Below are positions 7,042 to 35,489 of a DNA stretch of 64,000 nucleotides, piece after piece. The stretch's first letter is position 1. Every line of letters starts with the position of its first letter. The stretch is taken from IMG/VR virus record IMGVR_UViG_2870517152_000001, positions 7,231 to 71,230 of that record; one strand, given 5' to 3'. Both the position numbers and the translations under genes were made by a program. Below the pieces are notes generated by a model. It did not search any database, had not been told where the DNA came from, and saw nothing but the letters and a program-made list of their open reading frames with translations. The stretch comes from a virus (Duplodnaviria > Caudoviricetes).

Positions 7042-7356
7042 ATGATGTCCGATCCCCCCACCACACGGGCGGACCACGCCCGCGCCGAGATGTGCCTCAC
7101 CGTCGCCGCGGCCATCCTCGGCATGTTCGCCCTCACCCAGCGCTCCGCCGTCACCTGGGTCCTGTTCAAGGCTGGCGTGCCCGCGCCGTGGCTGTCGCCG
7201 TGGGTGTGGCTCCCGCCGCTCACGGTCTCCGCCGCCTGCTTCCACGTCGCCTGGCGCCTGATGCGGCACGGCACGGTGCCCGCCGTCTCGGCGCTCGTCG
7301 CGTTCGCTGGCTGGGCCATGATCCTCCTCGTCGAGGTCGCCTGGTGGGTCCGGTGA
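7042..7356 (+). CDS. Small membrane protein (three TM segments), Spd-like
   Basis: GAAAGGAAG RBS; hydrophobic helices. Confidence 0.6.
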   Translation: MMSDPPTTRADHARAEMCLTVAAAILGMFALTQRSAVTWVLFKAGVPAPWLSPWVWLPPLTVSAACFHVAWRLMRHGTVPAVSALVAFAGWAMILLVEVAWWVR

Positions 7357-26454: not shown

Positions 26455-27384
26455 TTAGACGCCGGTGTTGGTGAGCTCGACCGCGGCGCCGGGCTCCTGC
26501 ACGACCGGCACCGTCAGGCGGCGGCCCTGCAGATCCCACTTGTCGGCGGTGTCGACCCGGATGGACTTGACCTGTACCTGCAGGTCGGAGACGGCGTAGC
26601 CGGGGCTGGACTCCTGCTCGTCGGCCATGCCGCCGAGCTGCGTGGAGTCGAGCACGAGCGGCGTGGTGATCGACGGGGAGACGACGATGCGCAGCCCGGC
26701 GATGACTTCGATCTCGCCGCTGTAGACGGGGCTGTCGAGCGTCTCGCGACGCAGCGCATTCGTGATCTTGTCGTCGCTCATGACGGTCGCGTACTGCGCG
26801 TCGTTCAGCGCCAGCGTGTCCGGCATGTAGCCGAGGTTCTGGCCCACGACGATGGCCTTGGCCTTGAGGATGTCGCGCAGGATCGTCGGGCTGGCGGCCG
26901 TCCATGCGACGCCACCGCTCCCGGTGACATCGAAGGTGTTCGTCACCGCCGACGCGATAGCCGACATGGTGACCCCGTCGACGGTCTTGATGATGCTGTT
27001 GACGACCTTGCGCAGCGCCCGGTCGACGGCGGCGCCGCCGTACACGTTGCGGGTGATCTCCTCATCGGTGATGGGCACCTTCTGGCCCCACTTGCTGACG
27101 GAGGCGATGGCGGCGGTGCCGGTCGGCAGGTTCGCTGAGGGGTACTCCGAGCCCGCGCTGACGGCGGTGACGGAGCGGTCGGTGACGAACGGCTCCGACA
27201 TCTCGTACAGGACCGCGCCGCCGTTCGTCCTGAACCGCTGCGTCAGCAGCTGGTCCGAAACGAACCGCAGGTCGCGGTAGTTGCGGAGCCGGCGCTGGAT
27301 GGCGGTCGGGTTGGCGAGGAACCGGCTGATCGTCTCCAGATCGCCGCTCAGGGTCGGCGGGCCGGCCGGGTAGCTTCCAGGCAT
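26455..27384 (-). CDS. Major capsid protein
   Basis: AAGGAG RBS; 309 aa after protease and decoration genes; V.AGSEYP and KWGQK...ITDE HK97-fold-like motifs. Confidence 0.85.
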   Translation of the reverse strand: MPGSYPAGPPTLSGDLETISRFLANPTAIQRRLRNYRDLRFVSDQLLTQRFRTNGGAVLYEMSEPFVTDRSVTAVSAGSEYPSANLPTGTAAIASVSKWGQKVPITDEEITRNVYGGAAVDRALRKVVNSIIKTVDGVTMSAIASAVTNTFDVTGSGGVAWTAASPTILRDILKAKAIVVGQNLGYMPDTLALNDAQYATVMSDDKITNALRRETLDSPVYSGEIEVIAGLRIVVSPSITTPLVLDSTQLGGMADEQESSPGYAVSDLQVQVKSIRVDTADKWDLQGRRLTVPVVQEPGAAVELTNTGV

Positions 27385-29294: not shown

Positions 29295-31322
29295 CTACCT
29301 CCTGTCCCAGATGGCGATGACCTGGCCGCGGCAGCGGACCCCGCCCAGGCAGGAGACGTAGGCGCCGTTGCCGTACGCCTTCTCGGCGGCGTCGAGGTCG
29401 TCGAAAACGGTGCCGTCGATAGCCCGGCACGGCTGGCAGGTGCTGCGGTCGAGCTGCTCGGAGGCGAGGTAGCGGGCGGCAGGGGCGTCGCGGAGCACCG
29501 CGATGCGGCCGGCTGCCTGCGCTGTGGAGAGTGCGCCGCCGACCTGGTCGCGTACCGCGCGCAGGGAGAGGGCGGCGAGGATCGCGGCCACCTCGACGGC
29601 GACCGCGGCCCCGGCCGCCCCGGGGACGGCCAGCCGCAGCGCGGCAGCGGCGGCGGCCCCGGCCAGGCCGGCAGCGAGCAGTGCGGCCACCGCGACCGCC
29701 ACAGCCTCCAGATGCCCCTCTTCGATGGGGGGCGGTTCGACGCGGACGCCCTGGGCTGCGGCTTCGGCCGACATCTGCTCGGCGCTCGTCTCGGCCAACT
29801 CCAGCATCGCCACCGCGAGCAGTTCCGCGGCTTCCGTGCTGTCGATGGTGAGCTGGGTGAGCGCATGCACGTCGCCGTCGTCCACCGCTGCGGCGATCTG
29901 GGCGGCGAGCTGTGTCCGCCAGTCCTCGGCGATCGCGGGCCAGGCTTCGAGCACGGTGTCGAGCGCTGCCTGCCACGCCTCCTGCACCGCGTCGAGATCC
30001 GGCTCAGCGGCGGCCCGGACCGGCTCTGGCCCGGGGCGGCTGGCGGCGAGTTCCTGGCCCTCACGCGCTGGCGCGGGTTCGGGATCCGGGGGCTGGGGCG
30101 CCGGTGCTCGTACGGGCTCGGCCCGCTCGGGCAGCCGCCACGCCTCCCGCACGTACGCTTCCAGCGCCGGGTCGGGGGCGAGGGCTCCGGACCGCATGAG
30201 CTGCTCCAGCGCCTCGGCGGTGACTTCCTGCCGGGAGCCGACGTCGCTCACGACGATCCGCGGGGCGGGCTCGTCGGGCCCGAAGTTGAGGTCGACCAGG
30301 TCGGTGACGATGCCGGGCATTCCGGTCTGGCCGGTGGTGGCGGTGTCGGCGATCTCGTCGGCGATCGACTGGAGGCTGAGCAGGAACAGGTCGAGGAACG
30401 AGTCGCCGAGCGCCCTGGAGCCGTTGCTGGTGTCGCCGAGGTCCATCAGCCCGGCCAGCGCCTGGCGCGACATCTGCTGGTCGAGGTAGCGGATGAAGCC
30501 CATGGCGTCCGGCACCGAGCCGGTCATGCCGGTGATGGCCAGCCGGAACCCGTCCGGGAGGCCGACCCCGGCGCGGTCGCCGACCCGCATCGCGGACGCC
30601 AGCCGCTGGGCTTCGGCGACCTGGCCGGGTGTGGCCCCGGGCGGGGCGGCCACGGACGGCACTCCCATGCCGAAACGGCGAATCGACGTGGCGTGGACGC
30701 GCCATACCTCGTGCTTGAGCAGCCAGGCGCCGTACGCGGGCCTGAGGAGGCTGCGGCCGGTCCAGTTGGCCGCCTCGCGGTCGTGCACGTACCAGACCAG
30801 CCGGTTCGCCGGGATCGGGCGCACCGCGGCGAGGTTCTGCGTGATCGACTGCACGGTCTCGTCGGCGGCCAGCTGGATCTGGCCGATGGTGTGCGGCATC
30901 CGCTCGCCGAGATTCACGAGCCGGGCCTGCCCGCCGACGATGTCGTAGCGGCGCTCGAACGGCATGAACCCGAACGTCAAGCTCAGCAGCGCCAGCCGGA
31001 GGTGGTCGGCCCAGCGGACGCCGCGCCGCCGCGCTGGGCCGGGCTCCGGATCCACGCCGAGGATCGGCAGGCCAAGGTCGTCGGCGACGAGCTGCACGAC
31101 CTCGTCGCGGCAGCCGGCCGGGTCCACGGCCCAGGTGGCTCGGCGGATCGGCAGCGTGTACGCCGACAGGACGGCGGTGAGCTGGGGGTCGGTGCGCATG
31201 AGCGCGTAGGTGCGGGCTGACAGCGGCCACGTCAGATCCTGGATCTGTTCCTGCAGGTCGCCGTACCAGGTGCCGTAGTTGGAGTCGAGGTGGCCGATGT
31301 CGCGGGTCGGGGCGCTAGCCAT
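29295..31322 (-). CDS. Portal protein (DUF935/Mu gp29-like) fused to a MuF-like C-terminal domain
   Basis: Portal motifs (MRTDPQL, FGFMPFE, RRFGMG, GSRALG) then LDRSTCQPC..DG...C.G..RCRG Cys cluster. Confidence 0.8.
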   Translation of the reverse strand: MASAPTRDIGHLDSNYGTWYGDLQEQIQDLTWPLSARTYALMRTDPQLTAVLSAYTLPIRRATWAVDPAGCRDEVVQLVADDLGLPILGVDPEPGPARRRGVRWADHLRLALLSLTFGFMPFERRYDIVGGQARLVNLGERMPHTIGQIQLAADETVQSITQNLAAVRPIPANRLVWYVHDREAANWTGRSLLRPAYGAWLLKHEVWRVHATSIRRFGMGVPSVAAPPGATPGQVAEAQRLASAMRVGDRAGVGLPDGFRLAITGMTGSVPDAMGFIRYLDQQMSRQALAGLMDLGDTSNGSRALGDSFLDLFLLSLQSIADEIADTATTGQTGMPGIVTDLVDLNFGPDEPAPRIVVSDVGSRQEVTAEALEQLMRSGALAPDPALEAYVREAWRLPERAEPVRAPAPQPPDPEPAPAREGQELAASRPGPEPVRAAAEPDLDAVQEAWQAALDTVLEAWPAIAEDWRTQLAAQIAAAVDDGDVHALTQLTIDSTEAAELLAVAMLELAETSAEQMSAEAAAQGVRVEPPPIEEGHLEAVAVAVAALLAAGLAGAAAAAALRLAVPGAAGAAVAVEVAAILAALSLRAVRDQVGGALSTAQAAGRIAVLRDAPAARYLASEQLDRSTCQPCRAIDGTVFDDLDAAEKAYGNGAYVSCLGGVRCRGQVIAIWDRR

Positions 31323-31533
31323 CGGCGGGCCCCCTCTCGAACTCGTCGGCGACGAGGCGCAGCACGTCGGCGATCCGGCGGCGCAGCTCGCTGTGGTCCA
31401 CGCGGACCTCGATCTCCCAGGTCCCACCGGCGTTGCGCACGGCCGGGCCCTCGACGAGCGGCAGGTCCACGGACCCGACTTCGGCGGTGGTGCCGCCGAT
31501 CTGGAGCACGACGGGTAGGGCGGGGCGAACCAT
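31315..31533 (-). CDS. Hypothetical protein (72 aa)
   Basis: GGGAG RBS; overlaps the portal start. Confidence 0.5.
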   Translation of the reverse strand: MVRPALPVVLQIGGTTAEVGSVDLPLVEGPAVRNAGGTWEIEVRVDHSELRRRIADVLRLVADEFERGPADG

Positions 31534-31538
31534 GCTGA

Positions 31539-31874
31539 TCACTCCCGCTCTGCGCGACTCCACACGGCGTCGTTGGCCTCGTGTACAACCTGCCAAAGCT
31601 CCTGGCGCCGGGCTTCGTCGGCCTCGGCCCACTTGTCGCGCATCGAGTCGACCGCATGCACCAGTCGGCGCACCTCGACAGGCAGACCAGCGATCTCGTC
31701 GGGTTCGCCGGAGATCATGGGACGGAGGGTGTATCCCTCGTTCAGGGTGTCGGCCACCGCGCGCAGGAATCGCTCTAGCTGCGCCCACCGGTGAGAGTCA
31801 GAGTCGAGCACCTCAACACTGCCGAGGTCGTACGCCTTGTCGCCCACGGTCAGCGAGACCGGCAGAACCGTCAT
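31539..31874 (-). CDS. Hypothetical protein (111 aa)
   Basis: GAGGGGGGA RBS; between terminase and portal. Confidence 0.55.
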   Translation of the reverse strand: MTVLPVSLTVGDKAYDLGSVEVLDSDSHRWAQLERFLRAVADTLNEGYTLRPMISGEPDEIAGLPVEVRRLVHAVDSMRDKWAEADEARRQELWQVVHEANDAVWSRAERE

Positions 31875-31886
31875 ATCCGTCCCCCC

Positions 31887-34241
31887 TCAGTAGTTGATGC
31901 TCATCAAGTCGAGGCCGCTCGTGTCGCCGGTCGCCGCGGCGTACGCCTGCCCGATCACGTCGTCCACGGCCGCAGCGGCGCGCCGGGCGTCGACCTCGGC
32001 GGCGGACTCCGACGGCAGCCAGTGCGCTGAGACGACCCGAGCCGCGTACGAGAGCGTGTCCACCTGGTCGTCATGCGCGGCGGTCGGGAACGACGCGAGC
32101 TCATCGCACCAGTCGTCCAGCCAGTCGGCGTGCGCCGGGAACCACACCCGGTGCTGCTTCACCCGCGAGGTGGCCGGCAGCGCCCTCGTGAGCTTGTCGG
32201 TCTCTGCCTTCAACGGCTGGACCGGCACCCCGCTGGCGGTGGCGTCGATGACCAGCGTGGTGCCGATGAACGCCGACTCGACGAACACAGTGTCGGCATT
32301 CCACCGCTCGCGCAGCGGCCGGACCAGGTCCCAGTGATCTTCTTCGCCGACGCGGGCCCGGGCCCGGTCGAGCAGAATCAGGTCGCCATCCAAGCCGATC
32401 GCCCACACGGAAGCGACCGTGTAGTCCGCGCTGGTGCGCTTCGACGCGGCCAAGTCGACCGTCATGAACCGCCAGCAGTCGTCGAGAGCGACAGTCCGCC
32501 CGCCGAGGTCCAGGCGTTGGCCCTGCATGACGCCGTGCCGCGACGGGTCGGCAGGCATGCGCTGCCAGTAGCGGAAGTCCTGCCGCTTGAACAGATTGCC
32601 CTCGGCCGCGGTAGGGGTCTGCTGGTAGATGCTGTTCCACACGTACGCCGACCTGGTGGCCTGCAGCTTCCGGAAGTAGCCAGGCTTCCGGCGTTGCACC
32701 GATGTAAGCTCCTCGCCCGGGCGGCGGCCGAGCGGATCCCCCGGTCCTGCGATCGCGGGGATGCGGACGATCCGCCAGTCGCCGGGCTCGCGCGTCTCCA
32801 GCCGGCCGGCCAGGTCGTCCTCGTGCCAGCGAGTGTTGTGGCTCACCAGCCCGTTGGCGATGAAATTCTCCGTGCGGGCAATCTGAAGGTCGAATACATC
32901 TTCGCGCCCGCACGGCTCCACTGCGACAACTTCGTCAGGCGTGACGCTCCAAGTACCTAGCGGCAGCCCTGAGAATTTCGGGTGACTTCCCGTATCCGAC
33001 GGCGAGGTTGCAGTCGTTGCAGAGCAGCCCGCGCACCTTTCCGGTGTCGTGGTCGTGGTCGACGCATAACTTCCCGTTCCAGTGGGCTCGGGTGTTGCTG
33101 TCCGACGGTGGCTGTCCGCAGATGGCGCAGTTCCCACCCTGCTCGCTGATAAGGAAGTCAACCTCTTCATCGGTGAGCCCGTAACGATGCTTGAGATGAG
33201 CTCTGCGACGCGCCGCAGCGTTGACCGAAGGTGGGCGATGGCCGGATGCCCAACGAGCCTTGTTGTAGTGGGAGGTACACATCCCCTTGCATCGTGCTGC
33301 CGAGTCGCATCCGTCAACGGAACATGTGACTCCGCGCCATTTCCCCCAATAGCCGTCAGGATGCTTACTCCCGGCCGGATTTGATCCGTTCGCAGCCATG
33401 ACTCTTTTCCGTTCGCATCGATGGTCAAAAACGGATGCCGGGCGTTGGCCCTGACAATTCGTCCTGATTTCATCCTAATGCGAAGGAGATCATCCGGTCC
33501 CTGGTTTGCCCAGTTCATCACTGTTGACGTGGTGAGTTCGCCACCTTCATAGGTAGCCACCTCGTCGCCAGGGCGAATGTCGCGCAACGGCTTTTCGCTG
33601 CCGTCTGGCAAGAGCACGGGGGTGTCCCCGGTCATGCACATCATGAGCACGACCTTCGCCCGGGAGGACAGGCGGGTGGAGCCGTTGGACTCCCACCAGT
33701 CCCATGCCGCGTCGCGGTACGTCGCGGATTCGGCTTCGGCGCGGCCTCGTACGGGGTCGTCGATGATGAGCACGTCGACCGGTTCGCCGGTGATGCCGCC
33801 GGCGATTCCGACGCAGATGAGCTGGCCGCCTTGTTCGGTCTCCCACCGGCCGGCGGCTCGGGAGTCGGCGCGCAGGGTGATGCCGAGCTGCGGGTGGGCG
33901 AGGATGTCGCGGCGGATCTGCCGGCCCCACCGTTCGGCCTTGTTGTCGGCGTAGGAGACGATCGCGATCCGCAGGGTGGGGTCGTGGGCGAGCAGCCAGG
34001 CCGGGGTGCGGCGGCTGATCTTCTGCGACTTCCCTTCCTGGGGCGGGCAGAACACCATCAGCTTGTCGTGCTGGCCGCCGTCGAACAGGTCGGCGAGCTC
34101 GCGGTCGATGAGGTCGAGCATCGCGGTCTGCCGGTGGGTGCGGTCCAGCGCGGTGGCCATGGCGCCTGGTGAGGGCCAGGGCCGGGCCTTGATCTGGAAG
34201 TGCCGGGCCGCCACCTCCCACGGCGACAGCGTCGCCGTCAC
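31887..34241 (-). CDS. terL: Terminase large subunit containing an intein
   Basis: PPQEGKS Walker A, LIIDDP Walker B, M-TRWHEDDLAG motif split by the intein, RNase H-like nuclease (VDLA, HDDQVD); GTGA overlap gives start 34241. Confidence 0.93.
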   Translation of the reverse strand: MTATLSPWEVAARHFQIKARPWPSPGAMATALDRTHRQTAMLDLIDRELADLFDGGQHDKLMVFCPPQEGKSQKISRRTPAWLLAHDPTLRIAIVSYADNKAERWGRQIRRDILAHPQLGITLRADSRAAGRWETEQGGQLICVGIAGGITGEPVDVLIIDDPVRGRAEAESATYRDAAWDWWESNGSTRLSSRAKVVLMMCMTGDTPVLLPDGSEKPLRDIRPGDEVATYEGGELTTSTVMNWANQGPDDLLRIRMKSGRIVRANARHPFLTIDANGKESWLRTDQIRPGVSILTAIGGNGAESHVPLTDATRQHDARGCVPPTTTRLVGHPAIAHLRSTLRRVAELISSIVTGSPMKRLTSLSASRVGTAPSADSHRRTATPEPTGTGSYASTTTTTPERCAGCSATTATSPSDTGSHPKFSGLPLGTWSVTPDEVVAVEPCGREDVFDLQIARTENFIANGLVSHNTRWHEDDLAGRLETREPGDWRIVRIPAIAGPGDPLGRRPGEELTSVQRRKPGYFRKLQATRSAYVWNSIYQQTPTAAEGNLFKRQDFRYWQRMPADPSRHGVMQGQRLDLGGRTVALDDCWRFMTVDLAASKRTSADYTVASVWAIGLDGDLILLDRARARVGEEDHWDLVRPLRERWNADTVFVESAFIGTTLVIDATASGVPVQPLKAETDKLTRALPATSRVKQHRVWFPAHADWLDDWCDELASFPTAAHDDQVDTLSYAARVVSAHWLPSESAAEVDARRAAAAVDDVIGQAYAAATGDTSGLDLMSINY
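32835..33638 (-). other. Intein (268 aa, Cys1...His-Asn, Thr+1)
   Basis: CMTGDTPVLLPDG block A, NARHPF block B, VFDLQIARTENFIANGLVSHN blocks F/G; segment visibly more AT-rich than flanks. Confidence 0.93.
32935..33399 (-). CDS. Endonuclease VII-family (His-Me finger) homing endonuclease nested in the intein, in the -1 frame
   Basis: CSVDGC...CKGMCTSHY zinc motif; YGLT...EQGGNCAICG...VDHDHDTGKVRGLLCNDCN EndoVII signature. Confidence 0.9.
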   Translation of the reverse strand: MAANGSNPAGSKHPDGYWGKWRGVTCSVDGCDSAARCKGMCTSHYNKARWASGHRPPSVNAAARRRAHLKHRYGLTDEEVDFLISEQGGNCAICGQPPSDSNTRAHWNGKLCVDHDHDTGKVRGLLCNDCNLAVGYGKSPEILRAAARYLERHA

Positions 34242-34522
34242 GGCTCGCCGACCGTGAGGATCCCGGACCGGCGGACCGGCCGCTGCGTGCTGGTGGTGAT
34301 GCGCGTCCACACCACGTACTGGCCCGGCGCCAACTCCAGGCTGCTGCCCTGGCCGATGACCAGCACGGCATCCGTGCCGTCCCACGCCGCATCGTGGTAT
34401 TCCGAATCGGCCGGCTCTCCCGACGTCTCCAGCACCACAGCCAGTTCGACTGGCCACGCAGAGAAGTCAGCACCCCAGCCGACGCGCAACTCTTCCTTCG
34501 AGGTCACGGGCATGTACGCCAT
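34238..34522 (-). CDS. Small beta-sandwich protein (BppU-N-like), paralogue of 36240-36530
   Basis: AAWDGTDAVLVIG...GQYVVWTRIT matches AEWIGTDAAVLIG...GTYGIWVKIT. Confidence 0.65.
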   Translation of the reverse strand: MAYMPVTSKEELRVGWGADFSAWPVELAVVLETSGEPADSEYHDAAWDGTDAVLVIGQGSSLELAPGQYVVWTRITTSTQRPVRRSGILTVGEP

Positions 34523-34526
34523 CCGG

Positions 34527-35489
34527 CTACTCACCTCCCAGGCGGGGCGGGCCGACGAGCCAGCCGAGCCGCACACCCCCAGACAGCCACGTGAGGCGGG
34601 GCGGGCCGACAACGATGGACGGCAGATCGGGGTCGACCGCGTCGGAGGTTCCGGTGAGGCTGGCGGTGATCGCGGGCAGGACCGCCGCGAGCACGGCCTG
34701 CGGCGGGTCGGACACCTGGCCGGCGAGCGAGGCGGTCAGCGCGGGCAGAGCAGCGGCGATGCTGCCCTCGACCTCGACAACGCCCGACAGGGCAGCGGTC
34801 AACGGCGGAAGCTGGGCGCCGATCTGGCCGAGCACTTCGACCGTCGCGGAGGCCGCCATGACGACCGCGGGCAGGTTGGCGGTGAGGCTGCCCTCGACCG
34901 TCACCGCCCCGTCGAAGCTGGCCGTGACCGCTGGCAGGACGCCGTCCAGGACGCCGGTGACGGTGTCGGAGAGCGTGGATGCGCTGCTGCCGGGGGTACC
35001 GTCCCAGGACCCGCCAGGGGTCGTGTCGCCGTCGAAGTAGTCGCCCAAGGCCGCTGTCTGCTCGATCAGGACCATGGTCGTGTGGACGGTGGTGACGGCG
35101 TAGTTGGCCCCGTCCAAGATGATCTGGGCGAGCGCCGCCCCGCTGGGAGCGGTGGCGGTGAGGCTGGCCCGGGTCACCACTCCGGACGTCAGCGTGTACG
35201 AGCCGTTGCTGTAGGAAATGACACCGTTGGCGGCGTCGCGCCATTCGATGTAGATGCTGCCGCCGCTCGAGAAGCCGTTGGCCGGGCGGATGTACACGCT
35301 GGCCGTGTAGTCCAAGCCGGGCGCTACCGCTCCTGCGGAGGTGCGAAGGAAGGTGCCGCTGGTGTATTCAGCCGCGAAGGGGCGGCCGAAGCCGGTCACC
35401 GCCTGGCGGGTCGGTGTCGCCTCGCCGCCCCACCCGGCCGTGTCGTTGCTCAGGCACGGGTTGATGCAGCTGTTGTGCCTGGTCGCCAT
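34527..35489 (-). CDS. Fibre/adhesin-like protein: carbohydrate-binding-like N-terminal domain plus ~21-aa repeats
   Basis: NP...GW...YTASVY...YFDGD CBM-like pattern; five LPA.TAS..G repeats; W-rich tail. Confidence 0.6.
   Translation of the reverse strand: MATRHNSCINPCLSNDTAGWGGEATPTRQAVTGFGRPFAAEYTSGTFLRTSAGAVAPGLDYTASVYIRPANGFSSGGSIYIEWRDAANGVISYSNGSYTLTSGVVTRASLTATAPSGAALAQIILDGANYAVTTVHTTMVLIEQTAALGDYFDGDTTPGGSWDGTPGSSASTLSDTVTGVLDGVLPAVTASFDGAVTVEGSLTANLPAVVMAASATVEVLGQIGAQLPPLTAALSGVVEVEGSIAAALPALTASLAGQVSDPPQAVLAAVLPAITASLTGTSDAVDPDLPSIVVGPPRLTWLSGGVRLGWLVGPPRLGGE

Follow-up and report, generated by a model that had tools for sequence, protein, structure and literature searches.

An Intein in a Prophage Terminase Gene with an Endonuclease VII-Type Open Reading Frame Nested in Its Second Frame

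Introduction

An intein of the large terminase gene (terL) of phages that carries its nuclease out of frame, an arrangement termed previously unreported, has been described by Gosselin et al. (bioRxiv 10.1101/2025.01.02.630785). The preprint names the phages Angelicage, Affeca, Keitabear and Sedona, draws on a survey of PhagesDB only, and suggests that the out-of-frame layout is a transitional stage towards an in-frame endonuclease domain. From the same group comes the report of a hidden out-of-frame HNH nuclease in an insertion within a mycobacteriophage DNA methylase (ShiLan-type; Arsenault et al., Genes 2025, PMC11855218). Here, a terL intein with a nested nuclease open reading frame (ORF) is analyzed in a 64,000-nucleotide stretch of viral DNA (positions 7,231 to 71,230 of the 71-kb IMG/VR provirus record IMGVR_UViG_2870517152_000001), which is called the window throughout and to which all coordinates refer. 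The following sections establish the anatomy of the element, the conservation of its frame relation, the selection acting on either frame, the constant position of the start, the folds and the patchy distribution. The reading that we favor, with a probability of roughly 85%, is that a mobile class-1 mini-intein, inserted between (Q/M) and TRWHEDDL of a prophage terL, carries an overprinted nuclease gene in the -1 frame that is translated from an internal start and drives homing.

The first-pass annotation of this DNA, which had proposed a terL intein with a separately made out-of-frame endonuclease and both frames held open, had referred to a report of a hidden alternative-frame HNH in an actinophage insertion element and had left the novelty of its own locus open. 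That report is PMC11855218. As to novelty, the architecture is already described in bioRxiv 10.1101/2025.01.02.630785, and the window adds another case of it. The elements of Gosselin et al. share with the window the host gene and the frame offset, their intein and nuclease are homologous to those of the window, and an unstructured in-frame middle and a patchy distribution are also common to them. The phages of the preprint are the best database matches of the window, with Angelicage showing 72% nucleotide identity over 851 nt (blastn) and 64% amino acid identity over the full length of the nuclease (tblastn). The layout defined in the preprint, with the nuclease on the same strand, in frame 3 (+2), between the splicing blocks and with the host frame open, is present in the window and in 97 further loci. 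The window's copy resides in an uncultivated high-GC provirus, and its terL is only ~40% identical to the terL of the preprint phages. The ShiLan-type insertion resembles the window in that a homing-type HNH is overprinted out of frame, the host frame is free of stops and an internal start has been proposed (PMC11855218). However, the nuclease family and the host gene differ, and the ShiLan-type insertion has no splicing domain and stays as a loop in the host protein, whereas the shadow peptide of the window would be removed by splicing.

The Terminase Intein and Its Nested Nuclease

The longest ORF of terL, intein included, runs on the minus strand from 34457 to 31887 (856 aa) and contains the Pfam families Terminase_6N and Terminase_6C, with Intein_splicing (E = 4e-12 in the terL frame) and Hint between them. 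The class-1 intein occupies 33638-32835 on the same strand (804 nt, 268 aa), starting with the Cys1 codon at 33638-33636 and ending with His-Asn at 32835, after which the terminase resumes with TRWHEDDL, so that the insertion point falls in the conserved terL motif between LMM and TRWHEDDL. Cys1, the block-B His68, the penultimate His267 and the terminal Asn268 are invariant in the intein alignment and, with Thr at the +1 position, the class-1 residue set is complete; block B has Asn at a position that is usually Thr (N65-x-R67-H68). The N-terminal splicing domain (33638-33342, minus strand, intein residues 1-99) reaches a predicted local distance difference test score (pLDDT) of 85-97 in the AlphaFold2 model and shows wobble-biased diversity in the terL frame, while the C-terminal splicing domain (32975-32835, minus strand, residues 222-268, with the His-Asn end) starts from a pLDDT of 66 at residues 221-230 and then exceeds 90, and most of residues 1-99 and 222-268 taken together lie above 90. 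Foldseek matches the intein model to the NpuDnaB, SspDnaB and Mtu RecA mini-inteins with probability 1.0 and target template modeling (TM) scores of 0.75-0.87, including 0.85 against NpuDnaB (4o1r) and 0.87 against Mtu RecA (2in0).

Between both domains lies an in-frame linker (33341-32976, minus strand, residues 100-221), rich in Thr, Ser, Ala, Gly and Pro, with a pLDDT of 28-39, predicted to be disordered and poorly conserved, and the terL frame crosses the whole intein with zero stops. This linker is the terL-frame shadow of the nuclease gene. The GC content of the intein is 0.60 (0.53-0.65 along the element) versus ~0.70-0.71 in the flanking terL, and an Rfam scan of 32700-34600 gave no intron or structured RNA family at E <= 0.1.

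The nested endonuclease VII/HNH ORF lies wholly inside the intein on the minus strand, from an ATG at 33399 to a TGA at 32937-32935 (33399-32935, 154 aa), offset from terL by +2 (equivalent to -1), in a frame that is open from 33474. In this second frame, Pfam finds Endonuclease_7 (PF02945) with E = 1e-19 and 70.6 bits, against a cut-off of 23.6. The ORF comprises an N-terminal Cys-Cys-Cys-His zinc-finger-like motif (33324-33268, minus strand; nuclease C26, C31, C41 and H44, all invariant, pLDDT >90) and an endonuclease VII catalytic core (33198-32947, minus strand; nuclease residues 68-151) with the zinc cysteines 91/94/127/130 and the motif D114-H115-x-H117...N131. C91, C94, C127, C130, D114, H115, H117 and N131 are invariant among 29 sequences and align with the motif of the T4 enzyme (1e7d). 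The nuclease model has a mean pLDDT of 84.6, and its top PDB matches in Foldseek are T4 endonuclease VII and Hpy99I, at E ~6e-3 and probability 1.0, with zero matches at E <= 0.001; because the Foldseek E values are only ~6e-3, the fold assignment rests mainly on Pfam and on profile matches, among which the nuclease family profile finds T4 endonuclease VII in the PDB at E = 4e-8. Relatives of the nuclease were found by tblastn in 1,273 phage records.

Every coordinate that the first-pass annotation had given for the intein in the terminase M-TRWH motif holds, its description of the in-frame middle as protein-unlike and free of stops is confirmed, and the intact zinc finger plus endonuclease VII domain that it had read in the -1 frame is borne out by the domain matches in both frames and by the invariant metal-binding and catalytic residues.

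A long form of the element was also observed among the relatives (loci L037, L038, L041, L049, L050, L053, L058, L060, L063, L069, L072 and L096-L100 of our numbering), with inteins of 297-341 aa and nuclease ORFs of 185-236 aa. The long-form nuclease has one or two added N-terminal finger-like repeats of the type Cys-x-x-x-x-Cys...Cys-x-x-Cys, and both its start, at intein nucleotide 236, and the frame offset are unchanged.

Conservation of the Relative Frame

With the nuclease protein as query, 80 IMG/VR loci and 18 genome loci were obtained. The set of relatives analyzed here consists of 97 loci, retrieved by nuclease similarity, in which the nuclease lies between matches to the N- and C-terminal parts of the intein; their sources are phages of Gordonia and Mycobacterium, contigs of IMG/VR and genome contigs labeled with many phyla. 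The offset of the nuclease from terL is identical (+2) in 97/97, the terL frame crosses the intein without a stop in 97/97, and 0/97 of these loci, found as they were through their nuclease, have it in frame. The same +2 offset is obtained from the annotated terL start in the finished genomes of the Gordonia phages Angelicage and Vivi2 and the Mycobacterium phages Phlyer and Vincenzo. Homologues with a -1 frame full of stops would have spoken against the nested gene; the nuclease frame is open in all of the 97 but one (L101), at intein GC contents of 0.36-0.65. The third frame of the nuclease stretch, in contrast, is interrupted by 6 stops in the window and by 3-28 in the relatives. Synonymous shuffles of the nuclease ORF give 1.26 expected terL-frame stops per locus versus 0 observed, and the probability that the terL frame stays free of stops after such a shuffle is 0.087 for the window, while it is stop-free in 77/77 relatives. 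The two frames are jointly open beyond chance. Three results rule out openness as a mere by-product of GC content: the stops in the third frame, the outcome of the synonymous shuffles and the open frames of low-GC relatives. The fixed frame and the openness of both frames across loci of GC 0.36-0.65 thus argue that neither a sequencing artefact nor GC-driven openness accounts for the nested ORF.

Two observations on particular loci can be added. In L101 (2378-2587), from the uncultured bacterium bin LJ_bin-0733, the nuclease frame is decayed, with 70 codons open, while the terL frame and the splicing domains are intact, and this locus is likely an example of an element degenerating into a plain mini-intein. 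L086, labeled Oribacterium sp., and L087, labeled Dysosmobacter sp., stem from assemblies of two genera in one study, have identical coordinates and identities in every comparison, were exact intein duplicates at dereplication and have a GC content of ~0.62-0.64. Rather than two hosts, these matches suggest a common phage or contamination between samples, and the host labels of genome contigs need caution.

Selection in Each Frame

Nucleotide diversity by codon position was computed from codon-aware alignments of 56 short-form loci. In the terL frame, diversity at codon positions 1/2/3 is 0.31/0.27/0.61 in the N-terminal splicing domain and 0.21/0.14/0.60 in the C-terminal one. The nuclease ORF shows 0.32/0.29/0.58 in its own frame, and a terL-frame reading of these columns yields 0.29/0.57/0.32, with the highest variation at codon position 2. 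Across the nuclease stretch, amino acid identity is 0.59 in the nuclease frame versus 0.33 in the terL frame. The same holds for the recent divergence of the window from its two closest inteins, L006 and L007, from which it is separated by 114-116 substitutions: those in the nuclease zone fall on nuclease codon positions as 11/8/37 (versus L006) and 13/9/40 (versus L007), and amino acid changes relative to L006 number 18/154 in the nuclease frame versus 44/153 in the terL frame (18-21 versus 44-48 with L007 included). Since the substitutions are wobble-biased in the nuclease frame and amino acid changes are fewer there, the nuclease is, by this pattern of substitution, under purifying selection in the window's own lineage, and the terL frame across the nuclease stretch is, on the same pattern, merely kept open.

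Only the first ~16 nuclease codons follow the terL-frame pattern; here the ORF runs over the last part of the N-terminal splicing domain, and the nuclease model shows this segment as disordered. The real protein-on-protein overlap comprises these ~16 codons at the 5' side and about a dozen at the 3' end, and the remaining ~125 are only stop-free. The earlier claim of about 465 dual-coding nucleotides thus stands in so far as both frames are kept open, and narrows, at the protein level, to those ~16 plus about a dozen codons.

A side observation concerns the wobble base of the nuclease (33351-32938 and the corresponding positions of the relatives), which is the middle base of the terL-frame codon. 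Relative to the splicing-domain wobble of the same intein, it has more C (0.36 versus 0.28) and less T (0.22 versus 0.28), a composition that favors Thr, Ser, Ala and Pro in the linker. This skew may reflect selection for a soluble disordered linker or stop avoidance only; as the latter acts in the same direction at some codons, the skew is no more than suggestive.

Proposed Translation of the Nuclease

The putative translation start region of the nuclease (33410-33396, minus strand) comprises a purine-rich, Shine-Dalgarno (SD)-like GGAAAAGAG at 33410-33402 and the ATG at 33399-33397, whose A is the third base of the Ser80 codon and whose TG opens the invariant Trp81 codon (TGG, 33398-33396). 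The first usable start lies at intein nucleotide 236 or 239 in 77/79 unique loci (64 ATG and 14 GTG), and a purine-rich motif (GGAG, GGTGA or GGGGA) is usually found 7-12 nt upstream of it, in conserved Gly-Glu codons. The predicted pairing of this region to the 3' end of 16S rRNA averages -5.9 kcal/mol versus a background of -2.3 kcal/mol, the minimum of the +/-60-nt profile falls exactly at the start, and SD pairing at the start site ranks within the best quartile for the respective intein in 90% of loci. Moreover, a stop closes the nuclease frame 0-6 codons upstream of the start in 44/79 loci, and directly adjoins the start in 12 of them. Because the start position is fixed, the SD-like motif usual and the -1 frame closed upstream in 44/79, internal initiation is the supported and, from these sequence features, the best-supported candidate route to the nuclease. 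The first-pass annotation had left two routes side by side, internal initiation at ATG 33399 and a -1 slip; the former is upheld by the conservation of the start, and the latter loses its standing with the closed upstream frame and the lack of a conserved slippery heptamer, so that a -1 frameshift is rejected as the mechanism of the family.

Distribution and Mobility

A scan with the C-extein, covering the 80 nearest terL relatives, found an intein match in none of them (80/80 without), and the intein family occurs in distant terL genes; the comparison of intein-free and intein-bearing homologues that the first-pass annotation had called for is thereby available. The nearest terL (L104) is 83% and 75% identical to that of the window in the two exteins. 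In 40 empty junctions inspected, the exteins abut in 27 and are otherwise 3-6 nt apart, with one gap of 48 nt, and 12/12 junctions that were read out continue into TRWHE(D/N)DL, the empty allele reading LLMM followed by TRWHEDDL. The closest inteins (L006 and L007) are 88% identical in amino acids and 86% in nucleotides to that of the window, in terL genes that are only 37-39% identical to the window's. In addition, 25 locus pairs combine an intein identity >= 0.75 with an extein identity < 0.5, and the GC content of the intein tracks that of the flanks with a slope of 0.71, i.e., with regression to the family mean. When 20 kb of the window were compared with INPHARED, the only match was the intein, in Angelicage.

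These data carry the signature expected of a homing element that targets the conserved terL motif, and they fit homing because the intein is 88% identical in terL genes only 37-39% identical while the nearest terL is empty. The candidate 5' homing half-site is the end of the N-extein (33650-33639, minus strand; CTC ATG ATG, ...LMM), delimited by comparison of junctions, and the 3' half-site is the start of the C-extein, TRWHEDDL (32834-32811, minus strand), which is strongly conserved, also in DNA, in filled and empty alleles.

Genomic Context

Downstream of terL, a Mu-type portal gene (29295-31427, minus strand) and, further on, a capsid gene (26455-27384, minus strand) form an ordinary structural module; a 111-aa ORF (31539-31874) without a family match separates terL from the portal gene. 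The true start of terL is probably further downstream than GTG 34457, given that homologues align from ~34160. Within this 5' extension of the longest ORF, ARAGORN calls a tRNA-Ser (gct) on the plus strand (34311-34399), which is probably false, as Rfam places no tRNA there at E <= 0.1.

Proposed Mechanism and Alternative Explanations

In the proposed mechanism, a homing gene of the free-standing endonuclease VII/HNH type is overprinted in the center of the intein, in the -1 frame. Translation of terL through the element would give a precursor with the ~120-residue disordered linker between the two halves of the splicing domain, and the intein would then excise itself by splicing to leave an intact TerL; splicing is expected because TerL is essential and its frame is open in 97/97 loci. 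The nuclease would be initiated internally on the same mRNA, at the ATG over the Trp81 codon, with an SD-like purine run in Gly-Lys-Glu codons. It could cut an intein-less terL near the insertion site during co-infection or an encounter between prophage and phage, and repair from the filled allele would copy intein and nuclease together, which is homing.

Several points weigh against this proposal. The SD-like GGAAAAGAG of the window pairs weakly, at -3.5 kcal/mol, which places it at the 33rd percentile within its intein, and the low-GC relatives L046, L051 and L071 have no SD-like pairing. The nuclease frame of the window is open for 25 codons before the ATG, and the sequence of this copy is compatible with entry by frameshift. 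The loci are related to each other, so pooled counts and statistics are not independent and significance is overstated. Finally, that the precursor splices, that the nested ORF is translated and that the empty site is cut are steps that we infer from sequence. The best match of the nuclease, T4 endonuclease VII, also counts here and is taken up below.

A programmed -1 frameshift in the N-terminal part of the intein would yield a fusion of N-extein, intein N-part and nuclease, not a free protein. The -1 relation of the nuclease frame, its opening at 33474 and two near-slippery strings within the open zone, G TTT TTG (33432-33426) and C GGA AAA (33411-33405), all found as first annotated, speak for it. 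Nevertheless, both strings are one base off, and the window has no canonical X XXY YYZ heptamer in the terL frame; among the relatives, canonical heptamers occur in 11/77 loci, at positions that are not conserved and in 9/11 downstream of the start, entry by frameshift is impossible in the 44/79 with a stop just before the start, and the conserved ATG/GTG with its SD-like motif would remain unexplained. Such an entry is therefore very hard to credit. It is scarcely conceivable that compensating indels from sequencing or assembly conceal a nuclease that is really in frame: a metagenome-derived provirus record could, as a general possibility, carry indel errors, but the same +2 offset recurs in 97 loci that were assembled independently, among them Angelicage, Vivi2, Phlyer and Vincenzo, the window aligns to L006 and L007 over 804 nt with zero indels, and the nuclease ORF is delimited by a conserved start and by a stop at the C-terminal splicing domain boundary.

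Two further explanations accept the ORF and give it another fate or function. If the nuclease were an unexpressed relic, the intein would persist as a mini-intein and the second frame would be open through high GC; long open alternative frames are indeed common in high-GC DNA, with many among the ORFs of the window, and both the decayed, 70-codon frame of L101 and the weak SD of the window would agree with this. However, the third frame of the stretch has 6 stops, the substitutions since the split from L006 and L007 are wobble-biased, the zinc-binding and catalytic residues are all intact, and the frame is open at GC 0.36-0.45 too, which makes a relic improbable. Slightly more improbable is that the nuclease serves the phage as a branch-resolving or terminase-associated HNH in packaging, in the manner of T4 endonuclease VII, a packaging-linked junction resolvase that is its best match, a role with which its place within terL would agree. 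Against it, the nuclease is always accompanied by the intein among loci with intein matches, it is missing from all 80 of the nearest terL relatives, in which DNA packaging does without it, and it moves jointly with the intein between terL genes 37-39% identical. Because the nuclease tracks the intein and not terL, it is better regarded as part of a selfish element than as a packaging component.

Significance and Comparison with Known Systems

Gene callers overlook elements of this kind, which end up annotated as plain or decaying inteins, and their recognition corrects the annotation of terL and reveals a hidden nuclease gene. They offer a clean natural case of overprinting in which one frame is selected as protein and the other is only kept open; the terL frame would be selected only for openness because its product is spliced away. 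This makes them useful for the study of constraints on overlapping genes and of the origin of intein-endonuclease partnerships, in the sense of the view that splicing comes first and the nuclease invades later. Moreover, a small splicing domain would, as modeled, tolerate a disordered insert of 120 residues, and the nuclease may be a site-specific enzyme against a conserved terminase motif. For the window alone, the result is incremental, its kind having been described.

The preprint's suggestion of a transitional stage invites a different view, to which slightly less than even odds are given: the out-of-frame layout could be a stable design, arising from one ancient overprinting and spread as a cassette through phage terminases across many bacterial phyla, with 0/97 loci in frame. 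That ancient event would have set the nuclease start on the Trp81 codon and the ribosome-binding site in the adjacent Gly-Glu codons, a dimeric enzyme of the endonuclease VII type may be unable to work as an internal domain of an intein, and the nuclease wobble may be shaped so that the terL-frame linker stays free of stops and hydrophilic.

Relative to the accessible part of the preprint, the present analysis adds the spread of the family well beyond actinophages, the invariant frame relation and start position, the latter over the Trp codon and with an SD-like motif, and the exclusion of frameshifting; beyond PhagesDB, the family is also present on 80 IMG/VR contigs and on genome contigs labeled with many phyla. 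Canonical mobile inteins, with in-frame LAGLIDADG or HNH nucleases, share with the window the Hint fold, insertion in an active-site motif, the position of the nuclease between the splicing blocks and a homing-like distribution. However, their nuclease is a domain of the intein, whereas that of the window would be a separate polypeptide from another frame. Free-standing or nested phage homing endonuclease genes (HEGs), such as mycobacteriophage HNH/endonuclease VII genes or HEG ORFs within genes and group I introns, have their own start, stop and ribosome-binding site, as here, but the window's nuclease gene lies wholly inside a protein-splicing element and has every nucleotide in common with the terL frame. 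T4 endonuclease VII (gp49; 1en7, 1e7d) has the same beta-beta-alpha-metal core, four zinc cysteines and D-H-x-H...N motif as the window nuclease; nevertheless, only ~60-90 residues can be aligned, the window nuclease has an extra N-terminal Cys3His finger and, whereas the T4 enzyme acts in junction resolution, the context of the window nuclease points to site-specific homing.

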